Source: a virus
Length of the DNA: 32,000 nt
Direction: 5' to 3' (one strand)
IMG/VR virus record: IMGVR_UViG_3300045988_175865
Coordinates: 30,001 to 62,000 of that record
Positions 3,336-30,027 of the stretch are shown here, in pieces. The notes under the pieces are model-generated. The model had not been told where the DNA came from and made no database searches. It saw nothing but the letters and a program-made list of their open reading frames with translations. Each line of letters starts with the position of its first letter. Positions within the stretch are counted from its first letter, which is position 1. A program made the position numbers and the translations under genes.

Positions 3336-5876
3336 TTAGTTACAACGACTTCAGCCGCAGGACATACAGCTTACACATCCTGAAGTAGCAACCAATGGTT
3401 CCCCACATTCTGGACATACGTTTTTATTATCATGATTGGCATTTATTGAAGGTTTTGTATCTGGAACACTAATCTGCTCTTTTTGAGGAATTTTTACATT
3501 ATCTTTTATAGCTTCTGTAATTACTCTTGATATAATATCTGGGCATGACAAACCATCAATATTAATTTTTCTAGCCTTACATGTACTACAAGCAGGACAA
3601 TTAATTCCTCTTATCTGATCAATTATCTCATCGACTTTAACACCACTTCTAAGATTAAGAGAAATTAATCTTGTTACAGCATTCATGTTAGCTTGACAGA
3701 TACCACCTTTAGATGTATGTGTGAACACTTCTACAAGATTACCCTTATTATCCTTATTGCAAGTTATATATAATGTTCCACATGCACATTTTTTACAAAA
3801 AGTTGCACCATGTGTTGTACCAAGTGTTTTGCGTGAAACTGGTGCAATGGAATCAAATTTGAAAGATTGTTTTTCTTCTTCAACTTTAATAGATTCCCCC
3901 ATAATAGCTGGTCTACTATTTTCCCTAAATATCGTTAACCCTTTTAAACCAGCTTTCCATCCAGCTAAATATAATTTTTCTACATATTCTTGTGATGTAT
4001 CTTTCTTAAGATTAATTGTAGAACTTATTGCTGTATCAATATACTTTTGTAATGCTGCTTGAAGCTTTATACGATCATATGAATCAATATCATATGCTGT
4101 TACAAGAATATCATCATCTATAGAAGAATTAGGAACAGAATCAAGATATTCTTTTACAATTTTAGCATAAACATCATATACCTTTTCTTCTTTATTAAGA
4201 GATACTGTTTTTCTCTGAAATTTCTTCATAAACAGGGGTTCCAAACCGCCCGATACTCCAAGCATAGTTGAAATTGACCCAGTTGGTGCTATCGAAAGTA
4301 GTGAACAGTTTCTAAGACCAAATTTTTTCATTTTTTCAAGTTCATCGCTTGAAAAGGCTTCTTTCATTATACTAGATTCAAATACCTTGTCTGAATAGCC
4401 AGGAAATGTTCCAAGTTCTTTAGCAAGATCATATGAGGTAAATACAGAATTTCTGAAAATAAGTCTCATAATATTTTCTGCAAGTTTTATCGACTCTAGG
4501 CTTCCATATTTAATATTCAATTTTATAAACATATCATGAAGTCCCATAATTCCTATGCCAAGGTTTCGGTATTTAGCAATTTGTTCTTGTTGTTCCTTAA
4601 GAGGGTGGTTATGAAGATTTTCATCTATAATCCTATCCATTTCCCTAACAATAATCTTTATATCTGAAACTAGTTCAGAATAATTAACTGTTGCAAATTT
4701 TGTAAAAGGATCTTTTACATATTCAGATAGATTTATTGAGGATAAGTTACAGGACATATTTTTTGGCAAAGGTTGTTCCTATATATTACCTATTTAGCTT
4801 TTTATCTAGATATTCTGGAAGTTTCCTTCATACTCTTTATTGCCATTAGAGATACGTCTGTCAATTCAGACCAGTTTAGCATATATTTTCACTATAAAGT
4901 GTTGGGCACTCTTGGTGGAATTATATTTATTCATCCACTATGCGTTACAATGTTTCATAGCCTATTCGTAATCTATGAAATTATCTCGGTATTATCATGC
5001 AATAATTTGTTTAGACTTCACCGATTTTACCCAATTTTTTACATGAGGCAAACAATACAACTAACTGATAACCAGCCATTTACTACCACATGGATTACTA
5101 GTATCTATTTGATACTCAGTAATATACTCCATCAAATTATAATTTCTGAATCTATTCATAAACATGACTCCAGGCTCTGCATGTTCATATGCATTTTTCA
5201 TCATAAGTTTATAAATTTCAATTGGAGTTATATCATAATCAGGATATCCCTTAAACTTAGATTTAATATGAAGGGTTATAACTTCTCCTGTCTCATAAAA
5301 CTTATCTACGGCATTCATAAAGTTATCATCAACTTCCACAGAAAGGTTTGCATTATTGATCTTTCCAAGATTGCTTTTAATAGTTATGAAATCTTTTATT
5401 TGTGGATGATCTGCTGAAAGAGACATCATTAATGCGCCTTTACGTGATCCACCCTGAGAAACAGAAGCAGTTACAGTATTAAATATCTCCATAAATGGAA
5501 CAATACCATCTGTTTCATATCCTGAAGAAAGTTTTGATCCTTTTGGACGAATATCAGATAAAGATAATCCTTGACCTCCCTGAGCTTTGAACGTTAATCC
5601 TATATTTTTTGCCGTTTGAAGAATATCATCAAGATTATCTGCAATTTTACCAGACGAGTAGCAATTTGAGTACGAAGCCTGTCTGTCTGTTTGTCTGTTT
5701 GATAGAGTTCTTCCTCCAAATAAGAACTTTTTAGCAACAATTAACTTTCTTAGTTCTTCATTTCCACCACTAACTCTATCAAACCACTCGTCTAAAGACT
5801 CATTATTATATCTATACTTTTTATTTCAAATATCAATTCCTAATTGATCATTATTAAGCCATTCTTCAACAGTCAT
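3336..5876 (-). CDS. nrdJ: class II (adenosylcobalamin-type) ribonucleotide reductase, split by a group I intron (exon 1 5085..5876, exon 2 3336..4778)
   Basis: N-terminus MTVEEWLNNDQLGIDIW(TGA 5826-5828)NKKYRY. Other motifs: QGGQGLSLSDIRPKGS and SQGGSRKGALM. Joining the exons restores the catalytic motif TSNPCG|EQPLPKNMSCNLSSINL. Cys-rich tail CPECG...SGCVSCMSCGW(TGA 3351-3353)SRCN, then TAA at 3336. Confidence 0.85.
4779..5084 (-). ncRNA. group I self-splicing intron (ORF-less) in nrdJ
   Basis: 306 nt separate NPCG from EQPL. The 5' exon ends in U (GGT|) and the last intron nt is G (4779). The segment has stops in the exon frame. It shares sequence blocks with the other introns: 4877-4892, 4938-4949, 4984-5000. 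Confidence 0.75.
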
Positions 5877-23041: not shown

Positions 23042-23073
23042 TAAAAAATAAGGCATTAGAAAACTAATGCCTT
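23042..23073 (-). terminator. rho-independent terminator
   Basis: Perfect 10-bp stem aaggcattag / aaaa / ctaatgcctt (23050-23073). It is followed on the minus strand by AUUUUUU and lies directly after the HNH gene stop. Confidence 0.6.
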
Positions 23074-23079
23074 AATATT

Positions 23080-23649
23080 TTATTGTTTATTAACAGTGTA
23101 TCCATGATGTTCTAAAACTAGTTTACATAAGTTTAAGTACTCTTCTACAGTTAAATCACTTTTAGAATAATTAGCTGCAGGAGTTGTAATACCTAAATTT
23201 GATAAATCATTCGACCCGCCTTTAGAAACTGGTATTATATGATCAAAACAATAATCATCTTTTTCTAAATCAATAGGAGTGCCTGTTAAATAGCACTTTG
23301 TTTTTGTGCCAAATTTATTAATAATATCTAAAGTCTTAATTTTATTTAAACTCTTCATTCCTCTATTTTGAAAATGTTCAATATATCTCCTTAAACGTTT
23401 ACGTCATGTTCTATTAGAGATTCTTCTACATCCATGAGAGATTCTAGCACAAAAAGTACATAGTCTAGATTTAATTCTCCCCTTAAGTGTATTACGTCAT
23501 AATGAAGTAGATTTTCGTTGTTTACTATTAGTTATATCATTACAATAATATCCAACAATACTTTTGCTACATCCAAGTATCTTAGCAATTTCATTATAAC
23601 TTTTATTATCACTTCTTAAAATAAGAATTTGTTCCTTTAACTTACTCAT
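23080..23649 (-). CDS. free-standing HNH endonuclease with N-terminal HTH
   Basis: ATG 23649-23647 lies 14 nt after the tRNA 3' end. HTH is SYNEIAKILGCSKSIVGYY. Two in-frame TGAs at 23497-23499 and 23404-23406. HNH core is CFDHIIPVSKGGSNDLSNLGITTPAANYSK. Stop TAA. Confidence 0.75.
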
Positions 23650-23663
23650 AATCAACTTATTAG

Positions 23664-24101
23664 CACGAGCTCTCCGATTCGAACAGAGACCGTAGGGTTT
23701 GGAGCCCTACAATACGGTTTTGCTTACCACTATAGTTTTCACTACCAGTTTTACTGTTTGTAGTCTGGACTATATCAGCTTGATATACAAGTGTGGCATT
23801 TAGTCTCTACACATTTATAGAGTAAAGTAGGATACATAGAGAAGTGTACGGCTTTAATTTTCGACCTACTAAGCACTCCGCCTATTTTACACGGCATAAA
23901 CAGCCTATGTTCTCTACTGTATTTTACTCTAATTTAGCTCGGTATTATCAGCTATCCATATTTCAGGACCTTAGACTTTCTTAGAAAGCTGATTCGCATG
24001 ATTTTTATCATCTTATTTCGCTTTTACCGAATTTGCCACAATTTTCACGCCAAGCGTGCTCCAATTCGAAGACCGCTGTGCTACCATTACACTAAGCTCG
24101 C
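23664..24101 (-). tRNA. intron-containing suppressor tRNA, anticodon UCA after splicing (tRNA-Trp-like, G73), with a 25-nt extra arm bearing a CUCCAAA loop
   Basis: Exon 1 (24101..24069): GCGAGCU UA GUGU AAUGGUA GCAC A GCGGU CUU. Exon 2 (23722..23664): CAAA ACCGU AUUGUAGGG CUCCAAA CCCUACGGU CUCUG UUCGAAU CGGAG AGCUCGU G. The acceptor stem is 7 bp (G1-U72 wobble). The T-loop is UUCGAAU. U8, A14, GG and A21 are present. No CCA is encoded. Confidence 0.75.
23723..24068 (-). ncRNA. group I self-splicing intron in the tRNA anticodon loop (after U34)
   Basis: P1 is CUU|CG / UGGAG, with a U-G pair at the splice site. P2 is CACGC-UUG-GCGUG. P3 is UGUGGCA (24040-24034) / UGCCACA (23798-23792). P4 is UCGGUA (24030-24025) / UACCGA (23944-23939). 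P7 is GACUA / UAGUC, inside the consensus strings AGAGACUAAAUG and GAUAUAGUCC. P8 is CUUG-UAUAU-CAAG. The terminal G is at 23723. The ligated CUU+CAA pairs continuously with the guide sequence UUGGAG. Confidence 0.75.
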
Positions 24102-24124: not shown

Positions 24125-24155
24125 CAAAGATAACAAAAATCTGTGAACAATCAAA
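24125..24155 (-). promoter_or_regulatory. candidate Bacteroidota-type promoter (TTTG-N19-TAnnTTTG) upstream of the tRNA
   Basis: The minus strand reads TTTG (24155-24152), 19 nt, then TATCTTTG (24132-24125). The tRNA 5' end is 23 nt further downstream. Confidence 0.35.
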
Positions 24156-24170
24156 AATTTAATTAACAAA

Positions 24171-25376
24171 TTATAAAGAAAATTTGCGAATTTTGGTTAA
24201 ATAAATCTCTTTACGATATTGGTTAACTCCACCATAGTCACCATAACTCATCTGCACTTTACGAAGATGGTATAGCTTACCTCCCTCTAATTTTAATTTA
24301 TCTGCTATATCCTTTGGAAAAGTAAAATCAATAACCTTGTCAACTGTTATTTTTTTATAGTTACTATCCTTTGAATTTATAACATATATTAAGAAAGCAC
24401 TTAATATAAGCAGGTACCACTTAATTTCAGAGTAATCTGTAGTGGGTCTTAAAAATCTGAATTCTACAGTTTTATGGGCATCACCTGAAATTAAATGCAT
24501 TATATTCATATTAAAATATCTACCGTGCACTTCCCACTTACGCTCCTCTGTTGAATCATATGAATTAGGTAAATAAAAACTTTGGTCATCATTATACTTA
24601 TTACCAGTGAACCTTTTGTAGAATGTAGGGAGAGATGCAATACTCGGAAAAGGTTTATTGTAAGCTTTACCATTACTTTTATAGCGTTCTGTATAGTAAC
24701 TATATCTTGGTATGTACATACTAATAGACCATTGAAAATGGCACCAGAACTTACACAGACGATTAATATAACTATTATTAATTGGAAAGTTACCAAAATG
24801 AATATGCAAAGAGCAGTTTTTATCGTAAAACGTGTATCTTTCAAGCAGTTTCAAATGCTGTTTAATAATAGGTAAATCTATATGTGTTAATGGAAAAGTT
24901 ACATATTCATGCCCATTAATTGAACCATCATACAGTGGTACTAGATTTGTATCAATACAACTTAACCAAGGTATGTTTCCTGCGGATGTTTCATATTCAA
25001 GGCCAAAGGTAAAGTCTTCAATATATGTAAATTCTTTATCAGGTATTAATTTAATATACTTAGGTTTTAAAGATAGTTTTGAAAAATTGTAACATCTATC
25101 TATTGGATAATTAAACACATATTTAGAATCTGTAATGATATTATTAGATAGTTTTAAATCTATCGTATAGCAACAAATATTATTTACCCAATATAATGGT
25201 ATTTTGCAGTTCTCGCGTCTTTCCAAATAGGTAATTTTCCCTTCTATTACTAGAGGAATATTTAGTGGGTCTATTTCAAAATAACCATATTCTATATATG
25301 CGTAATCAATATAGATCACACCTCTTAGTAAGGTATCTCCAGTTTCCCACCTTTTTTTAGTATTATTGTACAGCAT
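24171..25376 (-). CDS. glutamine-synthetase-fold amidoligase (Amidoligase_2-like)
   Basis: FTFGLEYETS...LVPLYDGSINGHEYVTFPL...NCSLHIHFG follows the E-x-E / DGS / E-x-V / H-x-H order typical of this family. No in-frame TGA. Stop TAA. Confidence 0.65.
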   Translation of the reverse strand: MLYNNTKKRWETGDTLLRGVIYIDYAYIEYGYFEIDPLNIPLVIEGKITYLERRENCKIPLYWVNNICCYTIDLKLSNNIITDSKYVFNYPIDRCYNFSKLSLKPKYIKLIPDKEFTYIEDFTFGLEYETSAGNIPWLSCIDTNLVPLYDGSINGHEYVTFPLTHIDLPIIKQHLKLLERYTFYDKNCSLHIHFGNFPINNSYINRLCKFWCHFQWSISMYIPRYSYYTERYKSNGKAYNKPFPSIASLPTFYKRFTGNKYNDDQSFYLPNSYDSTEERKWEVHGRYFNMNIMHLISGDAHKTVEFRFLRPTTDYSEIKWYLLILSAFLIYVINSKDSNYKKITVDKVIDFTFPKDIADKLKLEGGKLYHLRKVQMSYGDYGGVNQYRKEIYLTKIRKFSL

Positions 25377-29484: not shown

Positions 29485-30027
29485 CTATAGTTCTAATGCC
29501 TTATTATAGCAGTACACAGCCAGTTCCTTCTGGGTTAACTTATTATAATCAGCAAATTCAGCCCCATGGTCCTGTAAAAGCTTTGCAATATACTGTAGTT
29601 CGTGTTTTTTTAGTTTGCTAAATTGAGTGGCCGAGAATTCTGCGACCTTCTTATCAAGAGCAATTAATTTGAGGAATACTTTTCCAAATGGTTTATTATT
29701 AAATTTATTAATATATACCTTTTGGTCAATATTATCCTCTACTGGGATAGCTTTAGGTTCAGGGTTAGGAACAACCTCGTCATATGGGATAATCATAAAT
29801 TCAGGTACCCATATGCCTATAGATAGAAAATATGGAATATCTGGGTCATTCTTATCTACATCCTCAATAACAGCAACATTACCAAAATAGGGAAAATCAG
29901 AAAATAAGACATATTTCATGTCTTTGTTACAATAAACACCTTCTAAGTCAGGTGCTTCCTTGAGTAGATTATCCTTAAGTAAACAATCAAGATTTTTAAT
30001 GATAACTTTGTCTCCTTGTTCAAACAT
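29485..30027 (-). CDS. hypothetical protein within the ligase cassette
   Basis: 180-aa ORF, stop TAG, 1 nt upstream of the ATP-grasp ATG. Confidence 0.5.
   Translation of the reverse strand: MFEQGDKVIIKNLDCLLKDNLLKEAPDLEGVYCNKDMKYVLFSDFPYFGNVAVIEDVDKNDPDIPYFLSIGIWVPEFMIIPYDEVVPNPEPKAIPVEDNIDQKVYINKFNNKPFGKVFLKLIALDKKVAEFSATQFSKLKKHELQYIAKLLQDHGAEFADYNKLTQKELAVYCYNKALEL

Follow-up and report, generated by a model that had tools for sequence, protein, structure and literature searches.

A phage opal-suppressor tRNA with a group I intron and a second arm copying the tryptophan anticodon loop

The DNA analysed here, called the window, is a 32,000-nt stretch (positions 30,001 to 62,000) of the IMG/VR virus record IMGVR_UViG_3300045988_175865. 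Its minus strand holds a tRNA gene in which a group I intron splits the anticodon loop and a second stem-loop, displaying the loop CUCCAAA and hence the tryptophan anticodon CCA, occupies the place of the variable arm. The gene belongs to a crAss-like gut phage with TGA recoding, whose opal-suppressor tRNA it encodes. The explanation of the whole that we favor, with confidence slightly better than even, is that of a spliced opal suppressor in which the second arm acts in cis as an identity element for tryptophanyl-tRNA synthetase (TrpRS). Below, the arm that forms the anticodon stem-loop upon splicing is called arm A and the additional one arm B.

Structure and splice junction of the tRNA gene

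The gene comprises the following elements, given in window coordinates.

24069-24101, minus strand: 5' exon of the tRNA, 33 nt, with the acceptor 5' strand at 24101-24095, the D arm at 24092-24078 and A26 at 24077
24069-24076, minus strand: arm A part of the 5' exon, GCGGU at 24076-24072 followed by CUU at 24071-24069 (anticodon loop positions 32-34)
23723-24068, minus strand: group I intron of 346 nt without an open reading frame (ORF), supported by a sub-threshold Rfam RF00028 alignment, by covariation and by its absence from intron-free homologues
24059-24064, about 24035-24041 with 23791-23797, and 23723, minus strand: intron guide UUGGAG, the two strands of P3, and the terminal G
23797-23808 and 23767-23776, minus strand: intron elements AGAGACUAAAUG and GAUAUAGUCC, respectively
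23714-23722, minus strand: first part of the 3' exon, with CAAA (loop positions 35-38) and the arm A 3' strand ACCGU
23689-23713, minus strand: arm B, a pseudo-anticodon variable arm, AUUGUAGGG-CUCCAAA-CCCUACGGU, with its loop at 23704-23698
23664-23688, minus strand: T arm CUCUG-UUCGAAU-CGGAG at 23688-23672, acceptor 3' strand at 23671-23665 and discriminator G73 at 23664

The acceptor strands GCGAGCU and AGCUCGU pair over 7 bp, including G1-U72, the D arm has a 4-bp stem and a 7-nt loop, the T stem has 5 bp, and the CCA end is not encoded by the gene. In the window the arm B stem has a 5-bp core (UAGGG/CCCUA), which in the window lineage can be extended to 9 bp. Loss of the intron converts the 438-nt precursor to a 92-nt tRNA with five arms, in which 24069 is joined to 23722 (predicted junction, GCGGUCUU followed by CAAAACCGU) and the ligated loop of arm A reads CUUCAAA, giving the anticodon UCA. 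The CCA triplet is confined to the variable-arm hairpin; the arm after position 26 has UCA and not the Trp anticodon CCA. A first-pass annotation of the same DNA, made from the letters alone, had described the acceptor halves, D arm, arm A, arm B and T arm, and all of its coordinates and sequences for these elements proved correct on re-check.

That annotation had also claimed that splicing creates a UCA arm, and had proposed running ARAGORN on the spliced sequence. When this was done, the 92-mer was called as a tRNA with a long variable arm and the anticodon tca, labelled SeC. In ViennaRNA the minimum-energy structure of the 92-mer is identical to the centroid and is the five-arm cloverleaf (-34.1 kcal/mol, z = -3.6), a stability that 1 of 200 shuffled sequences attained. 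Upon removal of arm A, ARAGORN called the remaining 71-mer tRNA-Trp(cca), in agreement with the annotation's claim that the molecule without its UCA arm is a 71-nt tRNA-Trp(CCA). Because of the intron and the extra arm, the gene was missed by the standard searches: neither ARAGORN at default settings nor Rfam with its gathering thresholds reported a hit in the 32-kb window. The intron mode of ARAGORN, run on the precursor, placed the intron two bases off and returned tRNA-Ala(cgc), a solution overruled by the intron-free homologues and by the requirement for a terminal G.

The splice junction was fixed by comparison with related phages. The neighboring amidoligase-like protein, used as a query, led to eight related IMG/VR loci, and BLAST similarity between the window and these loci spans the 5' exon, ends exactly at 24069 and returns at the 3' end of the intron. 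A pattern combining the D arm with the 5' half of arm A retrieved 44 loci with 18 distinct two-arm tRNAs, in which the intron measures 0, 341, 346, 360, 527, 605-609, 629-633 or 706-707 nt and the insertion site is always between CTT and CAAA. Eight intron-free homologues on other phage contigs read GCGGTCTT directly followed by CAAAACCGT (full reading, GCGGTCTTCAAAACCGT), which is the exact predicted ligation product, and the 346-nt stretch is missing from them base for base. The window intron and the 3' exon both begin with C, and the resulting one-base ambiguity is removed because some intron variants begin with T or A. The junction between U34 and the base after the terminal G, as first proposed, is therefore matched both by the intron-free homologues and by intron variants that all lie at the same site.

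The intron itself is divergent. The annotation had suggested a search with the Rfam group I model; Intron_gpI (RF00028) does align with it over its full length (24079-23750, E = 0.027), but at 18.5 bits, under the gathering score of 50, and none of the related tRNA introns at the relatives' loci reaches the RF00028 gathering threshold. Pairing at the splice sites is possible. In P1, CUU would pair with the GAG of the guide UUGGAG and place a U34-G pair at the 5' splice site, while a P10 could form between the CAA of the 3' exon and the UUG of the guide; the last intron base is G. Across five ORF-less intron variants, helices P2, P3, P8, P9 and the peripheral ones are preserved and 10 pairs have changed on both sides. 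Two of these lie in P3, which shows the compensatory series GUGGC/GCCAC, AUGGC/GCCAU and AUAGC/GCUAU. P7, read from the sequences, is GACUA/UAGUC in the window and GAGCA/UGCUC in the introns of the L001 type. The group I reading put forward earlier is thus supported by the P3 covariation, the possible U-G pair at the splice site, the terminal G and the occurrence of five or more intron variants (341-707 nt) at one site.

The guide UUGGAG (24059-24064) can also form Watson-Crick pairs at every position with CUCCAA in the loop of arm B (23698-23704), a better fit than to the true splice site CUU-CAA, where the U-G pair is needed. Arm B could compete for the guide or help the intron to fold. Such pairing cannot be its main role, because the intron-free relatives retain arm B.

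The longer intron variants contain endonuclease ORFs, namely a PDDEXK_5 enzyme at L007 (E = 2e-14) and an HNH/EndoVII-like enzyme at L005. PDDEXK_5 is the family of I-Ssp6803I, the enzyme of the cyanobacterial tRNA-fMet intron. The endonuclease ORFs of L005:7302-7935 and L007:7305-8011 have in-frame TGA codons, so that their translation would depend on the very suppressor tRNA whose gene they split; the intron ORF is broken at L001:7308-7917 and partly deleted at L002. The otherwise unrelated L005 and L007 ORFs have the same C-terminal 30 residues, which are in fact a read-through of the ribozyme core. Elsewhere in a related phage, a distinct group I intron (L010:3660-3925, minus strand) scores 84 bits against RF00028, so that these phage genomes hold both canonical and divergent group I introns.

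Conservation of two-arm tRNAs and the meaning of TGA

The first-pass annotation had suggested looking for the same arm in other phages, and 41 distinct sequences were found. In a search whose sole anchors were the D arm and the loop of arm A, with the second arm left unconstrained, 40 distinct UCA tRNAs were recovered, 30 of them long (92-95 nt) and 10 ordinary (71-73 nt). The second-arm loop is N-U-C-C-A-(A/U)-A in all 30 long ones. We then aligned the 41 distinct sequences, pooled from several searches and drawn from independent IMG/VR contigs, on the five-helix structure. Standard pairs fill 98.7% of the cells, 19 of 26 pairs show compensatory changes, and covariation is seen in all helices, including four of five pairs in arm A and four of five in arm B. 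None of 500 shuffles attained the observed values and slid controls reached 36-49% pairing; the architecture is far beyond chance.

The order of elements is constant in the family: D stem, A26, arm A (5 bp with CUUCAAA), a linker of 4-7 nt, arm B (5-6 bp with a 7-nt loop), NGGU, the T stem and then G73. G73 and arm B are both present in 41 of 41 sequences, and arm B thus forms an extra paired arm of the class II type. While its stem is variable (UAGGG/CCCUA, CGGGU/ACCCG, GGGGU/ACCUC, CUGGC/ACCAG, ACGGU/GCCGU, CCUGU/GCAGG and others), its loop is not: U33, C34, C35, A36 and A38 are invariant in 41 of 41, position 32 varies between C and G, and position 37 is U in one sequence and A in all others. 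By this comparison of sequences, arm B is a conserved feature under selection.

An ordinary tRNA-Trp(CCA) is also encoded at 17 or more of the related loci, frequently adjoining the two-arm gene, and the loop CUCCAAA is common to arm B and to these co-resident phage genes. Arm B is therefore not required to read UGG, nor can the two-arm genes be regarded as damaged copies of tRNA-Trp. A distant blastn with the locus gave nothing but short intron-core matches, megablast of 12 kb against GenBank phages gave no match, and six-frame ORF coverage did not discriminate two-arm from control loci. A scan of contigs from cellular genomes gave at least two real members. These two-arm UCA tRNAs have the loop GUCCAAA and lie in contigs filed as bacterial, L191 (a Phoenicibacter metagenome-assembled genome, 6.6-kb contig) and L242 (Parabacteroides goldsteinii, 90.8-kb contig), which may be prophages or else contigs of phages that were binned with a bacterial genome.

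All genes of the window lie on the minus strand, the G+C content is 29%, and the primase is 31-44% identical to primases of crAss-like Bacteroides phages. The eight ORFs upstream of the tRNA gene (32000 to 24171) have no in-frame TGA and 21 TGG codons, while the 33 ORFs downstream have 43 of each (Fisher p = 7e-6 against upstream); every ORF in the window stops with TAA or TAG, never with TGA. The tRNA gene sits exactly at this code boundary, next to the last gene of the TGA-free block:

24171-25376, minus strand: amidoligase-like gene with seven TGG and no TGA codons, at the code boundary

The TGA-free block consists of nucleotide and amidoligase metabolism, and the TGA-rich block of helicases, primase, RNase H, ribonucleotide reductase and endonucleases, that is, replication genes and not late structural genes. 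The RNase HI gene (20489-20031) lacks TGG and has TGA at codons 89, 103 and 119. Each of these three positions is Trp in the aligned E. coli RNase HI; in chain 3h08_A two of the three align with Trp, and the third aligns with Lys. These alignments and the codon counts indicate that TGA means Trp here.

While listing long tRNAs we encountered a 91-nt tRNA-Ile(UAU) whose variable-arm loop is CAGAUAA (L157:11311-11401), and it belongs to a second family of phage tRNAs with two anticodon-like arms. Members are about 89-101 nt long, among them genes of 94-97 nt, have A73 and carry a variable arm with a 4-6-bp stem and the 7-nt loop [C/U]AGAUAA, so that the pseudo-anticodon is GAU. The IMG/VR loci are L157, L308, L315, L318, L320, L327, L333, L343, L348, L376, L379, L394 and L424-L451. 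With the acceptor and D arm as the anchor and neither loop constrained, 22 of 23 distinct sequences were two-armed, with the anticodon loop CUUAUA(C/A/U) and the variable loop [C/U]AGAUAA. In an alignment of 19 full-length extracts, 99.6% of cells pair, 18 of 25 pairs are compensatory and AGAUAA is invariant. ARAGORN often mislabels these genes (Gly, Glu or '???'). In the major tRNA-Ile, the one read by isoleucyl-tRNA synthetase (IleRS), the anticodon loop is characterized by GAU followed by A37 and A38. In both families, then, the decoding arm has U34 and base 34 of the spare arm is the one usual for the synthetase. We give an even chance to the proposal that two-headed tRNAs evolved in phages at least twice, with a U34 arm that would decode (UCA for UGA, UAU for AUA) and a variable arm that would show CCA to TrpRS or GAU to IleRS.

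A third candidate combination, tRNA-Arg(UCU) and an ACG-like variable loop, turned up a single time, in a 93-nt gene with the loop AUACGAA (L367), and was left unconfirmed. A pattern scan for UCU with ACG gave 27 matches; L367 was not among them, and no match showed the pairing of a tRNA arm. The scan serves as a negative control. Other long tRNAs were noted on the way. The 86-88-nt tRNA-Arg(UCU) genes L014:3087-3172, L020:6744-6831, L034:2403-2488 and L040:10873-10960 have a covarying variable stem (GGCU/AGUC, GAGC/GCUC) and loops unlike an anticodon loop, and L069 encodes an 86-nt tRNA-Gly(UCC) and an 86-nt tRNA-Cys(GCA).

Proposed role of the second arm

In the mechanism that we propose, the 438-nt precursor would be transcribed, probably between a promoter at about 24155-24125 and a terminator at 23074-23049, and the intron, lying between U34 and C35, would have to self-splice, joining CUU to CAAA. 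Arm A, directly after position 26, would then decode UGA, and probably UGG too, as Trp in the downstream genes. Arm B, sized like an anticodon stem-loop with its 5-bp core and 7-nt loop, would display U33-C34-C35-A36 at the variable-arm position, where, together with G73, it would present the cognate CCA to the anticodon-binding domain of the host TrpRS. For bacterial TrpRS the identity elements are the anticodon bases C34, C35 and A36 and the discriminator G73, with C34 read through its O2 and N3 atoms (PMC12135181). Arm B might present the anticodon from the variable-arm side or by trading places with arm A under the D stem, an exchange that is possible because each arm has canonical connectivity on one side. 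The expected outcome is efficient and specific charging with Trp despite U34 in the decoding anticodon. TrpRS belongs to the TyrRS-like subclass and approaches its tRNA from the variable-arm side, so that contact with a flexible variable arm is conceivable. The role as an identity element is probable, in view of the invariance of UCCA on a covarying stem and of the parallel Ile family, which strengthen it short of proof; splicing activity, charging with Trp and recognition of arm B by TrpRS are inferred.

Several points weigh against this proposal. E. coli is known to charge an opal-suppressor tRNA-Trp. As a rule, a variable arm does not reach the anticodon-binding site of a synthetase, and the geometry proposed here is hypothetical. 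For the Ile family, IleRS, a class Ia enzyme, leaves the variable side facing away, and an arm-swapped conformer would be required; in addition, pseudo-position 33 in that family is A and not U. The score of the intron against RF00028 lies under the gathering score, as given above, and arm B is missing from 10 distinct related phage UCA tRNAs with the same D arm. E. coli TrpRS need not distinguish C34 from U34 (PMC12135181). Since the 10 armless UCA tRNAs exist and the E. coli enzyme tolerates U34, arm B is not an absolute requirement, and this tolerance, together with the charging of an opal suppressor in E. coli, means that its benefit could be modest or host-specific.

A mechanistic variant of this explanation, to which we assign a minor share of the probability, makes use of the five-way junction to let either arm stack under the D stem. 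The tRNA would be charged as a tRNA-Trp(CCA) with arm B in the anticodon position, after which arm A decodes; in a bifunctional version, arm B would decode UGG and arm A UGA. The connectivity suits an exchange of arms, as arm A is canonical on its 5' side, where the D stem and A26 precede it, and arm B on its 3' side, where it is followed by the 4-nt NGGU, resembling variable-loop positions 45, 46 and 48, and by the T stem. The ARAGORN call of tRNA-Trp(cca) for the 71-mer without arm A and the 4-7 unpaired linker nucleotides between the arms in most members point the same way. In the window lineage, however, the linkers pair into the 9-bp stem, which would hinder exchange, and reading of UGG by arm B would be superfluous, as UCA can read UGG and many of the phages encode tRNA-Trp(CCA). 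To our knowledge, an extra arm between positions 26 and 27 also has no precedent on the ribosome.

Comparably unlikely, in our estimate, is that arm B binds a partner other than TrpRS, such as a defence factor of the host directed at tRNA-Trp, for example an anticodon nuclease, for which it would be a protective decoy, an enzyme that modifies the anticodon loop, or a sensor of tRNA-Trp. The strictly kept U-C-C-A and A38 on a covarying stem argue for sequence-specific recognition without naming the partner, although enzymes dependent on A37 or C32 are less likely candidates because positions 37 (once U) and 32 (C or G) vary. Against such a partner, no candidate gene was seen near the tRNA, and the Ile family displays the anticodon of its own synthetase: synthetase identity covers both families, while two decoys would be a coincidence. 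The Ile family, which is unrelated and has the same arrangement with its own cognate anticodon, speaks equally against arm B being a neutral relic, with no sequence-specific role, of an arm duplication or of a fusion of tandem tRNA-Trp(UCA) and tRNA-Trp(CCA) genes. An origin by duplication or fusion is plausible in itself, as arm B, the 4-nt segment and the T arm resemble the 3' two-thirds of a bacterial tRNA-Trp and tandem UCA and CCA genes exist in these phages. Repeated replacement of the stem by compensatory changes and five of seven loop bases fixed in 41 variants nevertheless leave neutrality very improbable.

Finally, a serine acceptor or a selenocysteine-type tRNA, with UGA read as Ser or Sec, has almost no probability left and was rejected: the long variable arm, G73, UCA and the ARAGORN call of tRNA-SeC(tca) would fit it, but the acceptor and T stems are 7/5 bp and not 8/5, the D arm has a 4-bp stem with a 7-nt loop and not 6 bp with 4 nt, 40 of 41 members have U-A at 11:24 and not the C11-G24 of serine tRNA, the TGA codons of RNase HI fall at Trp positions as described above, and 43 in-frame TGA codons over 33 ORFs are far too many for Sec.

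Relation to known systems and genomic surroundings

Four parts of this design are already known, namely phage opal suppressors, anticodon-loop group I introns, class II tRNAs and engineered pseudo-anticodon variable arms. Like the suppressors of other TGA-recoded phages (crAss-like Zeta/Delta, Jade and Agate; PMC7886860, 10.1101/2021.08.26.457843, PMC12386605), the window tRNA is phage-encoded, has the anticodon UCA with TGA meaning Trp, lies beside the recoded gene block and is presumed to be charged by the host TrpRS. Unlike them, it has a second arm with CCA and a group I intron and is missed by standard finders. Recoded crAss-like phages with clear TGA reassignment and no detectable suppressor tRNA have been reported (PMC7886860, PMC12386605), and the two-arm, intron-split design may account for some of these undetected suppressors.

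Anticodon-loop group I introns are known from tRNA-Leu(UAA) and tRNA-fMet of cyanobacteria, tRNA-Ile of Azoarcus (PMC13168695) and tRNA-Arg of alpha-proteobacteria. The window intron resembles these bacterial introns and those of plastids in its anticodon-loop site, a P1 that uses anticodon-loop bases and has a U-G pair at the splice site, the terminal G and the P3-P7-P8 core. It differs in residing in a phage suppressor tRNA, in its weak similarity to Rfam, in the varied introns, with different ORFs or none, that occupy one site in close relatives, and in a guide that is also perfectly complementary to the arm B loop.

The closest counterpart of arm B is synthetic. In engineered suppressor tRNAs, a pseudo-anticodon variable arm that recruits the anticodon-binding domain of a synthetase enhanced aminoacylation (Mukai 2020, PMC7590224), and the window variable arm likewise copies the cognate anticodon stem-loop (5-bp core, 7-nt CUCCAAA). 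The engineered system, however, used allo-tRNA scaffolds and HisRS fused to an extra binding domain (PMC7590224), whereas the tRNA described here is natural, widespread and presumably served by an unmodified host TrpRS. The natural models cited for that work concern anticodon mimicry by mRNA, in a review of RNA mimicry by synthetases and in work on the ThrRS operator (PMC7590224). The E. coli thrS operator (Torres-Larios 2002, as presented in PMC7590224) is a hairpin that copies the cognate anticodon loop and is bound by the anticodon-binding domain of the synthetase; such mimics are regulatory mRNA elements and, unlike arm B, not part of a charged, decoding tRNA. Class II tRNAs with odd anticodons, including tRNA-Sec, allo-tRNAs and the nematode nev-tRNAs (PMC3333845), similarly combine a long variable arm with an anticodon mismatched to class II identities. 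In these tRNAs, however, the variable arm acts through shape and length (SerRS, LeuRS) and has no copy of an anticodon loop. The first-pass annotation had stated that no tRNA of this design was known. This stands for natural tRNAs, as none with a pseudo-anticodon arm is described in the full-text literature searched, a scope that leaves many subscription journals outside and does not guarantee priority, nor in papers on crAss-like phages, recoding and metagenomic suppressors; it does not stand for engineered ones, given the analogue just cited (PMC7590224).

Changing an anticodon usually harms recognition by synthetases that read it. A spare arm with the cognate anticodon would be nature's solution to this problem, one explored until now only by engineering. 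If the proposal is true, phages reassign a stop codon, or extend reading to AUA, using unmodified host synthetases, which would amount to a general natural route to altered codon meaning or reach and a ready scaffold for genetic code expansion, useful for orthogonal or efficiently charged suppressor tRNAs. It would also imply a layered control, in which the suppressor must be spliced before the recoded block, including TGA-containing homing-endonuclease genes, is translated. Annotation pipelines and code-prediction tools could be corrected for two-arm, intron-split tRNAs.

Three further features flank the tRNA gene.

24125-24155, minus strand: promoter candidate of the Bacteroidetes type (TTTG, 19 nt, TATCTTTG), located 23 nt upstream from the start of the tRNA
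23080-23649, minus strand: free-standing HTH and HNH endonuclease gene with two in-frame TGA codons (Pfam HNH_4, E = 6e-6; HNH; HTH_38)
23049-23074, minus strand: intrinsic-terminator-like hairpin of 11 bp followed by a T run, the probable end of the tRNA transcription unit

The promoter candidate is a weak lead that would fit a Bacteroidales host: its position and orientation are suitable, while the motif occurs four times in the window against 1.74 expected, which is not significant. At L001-L008 the terminator hairpin directly follows the tRNA, and in the window the endonuclease gene is inserted between the two; this HTH-HNH gene resembles a mobile insertion beside an intron that lacks an ORF. 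A tblastn search of the fetched partial-genome loci with an approximate E. coli TrpRS query revealed no phage TrpRS.

Elsewhere in the window, the ribonucleotide reductase gene is split at about 4760-5068 (minus strand), where one ORF ends at 5061 and the next begins at 4757. The gap of about 300 nt shares GATAATACCGAG with the tRNA intron and is negative in Rfam even at E = 1; it may be another group I intron. A LAGLIDADG-like ORF is present at 13496-12306.

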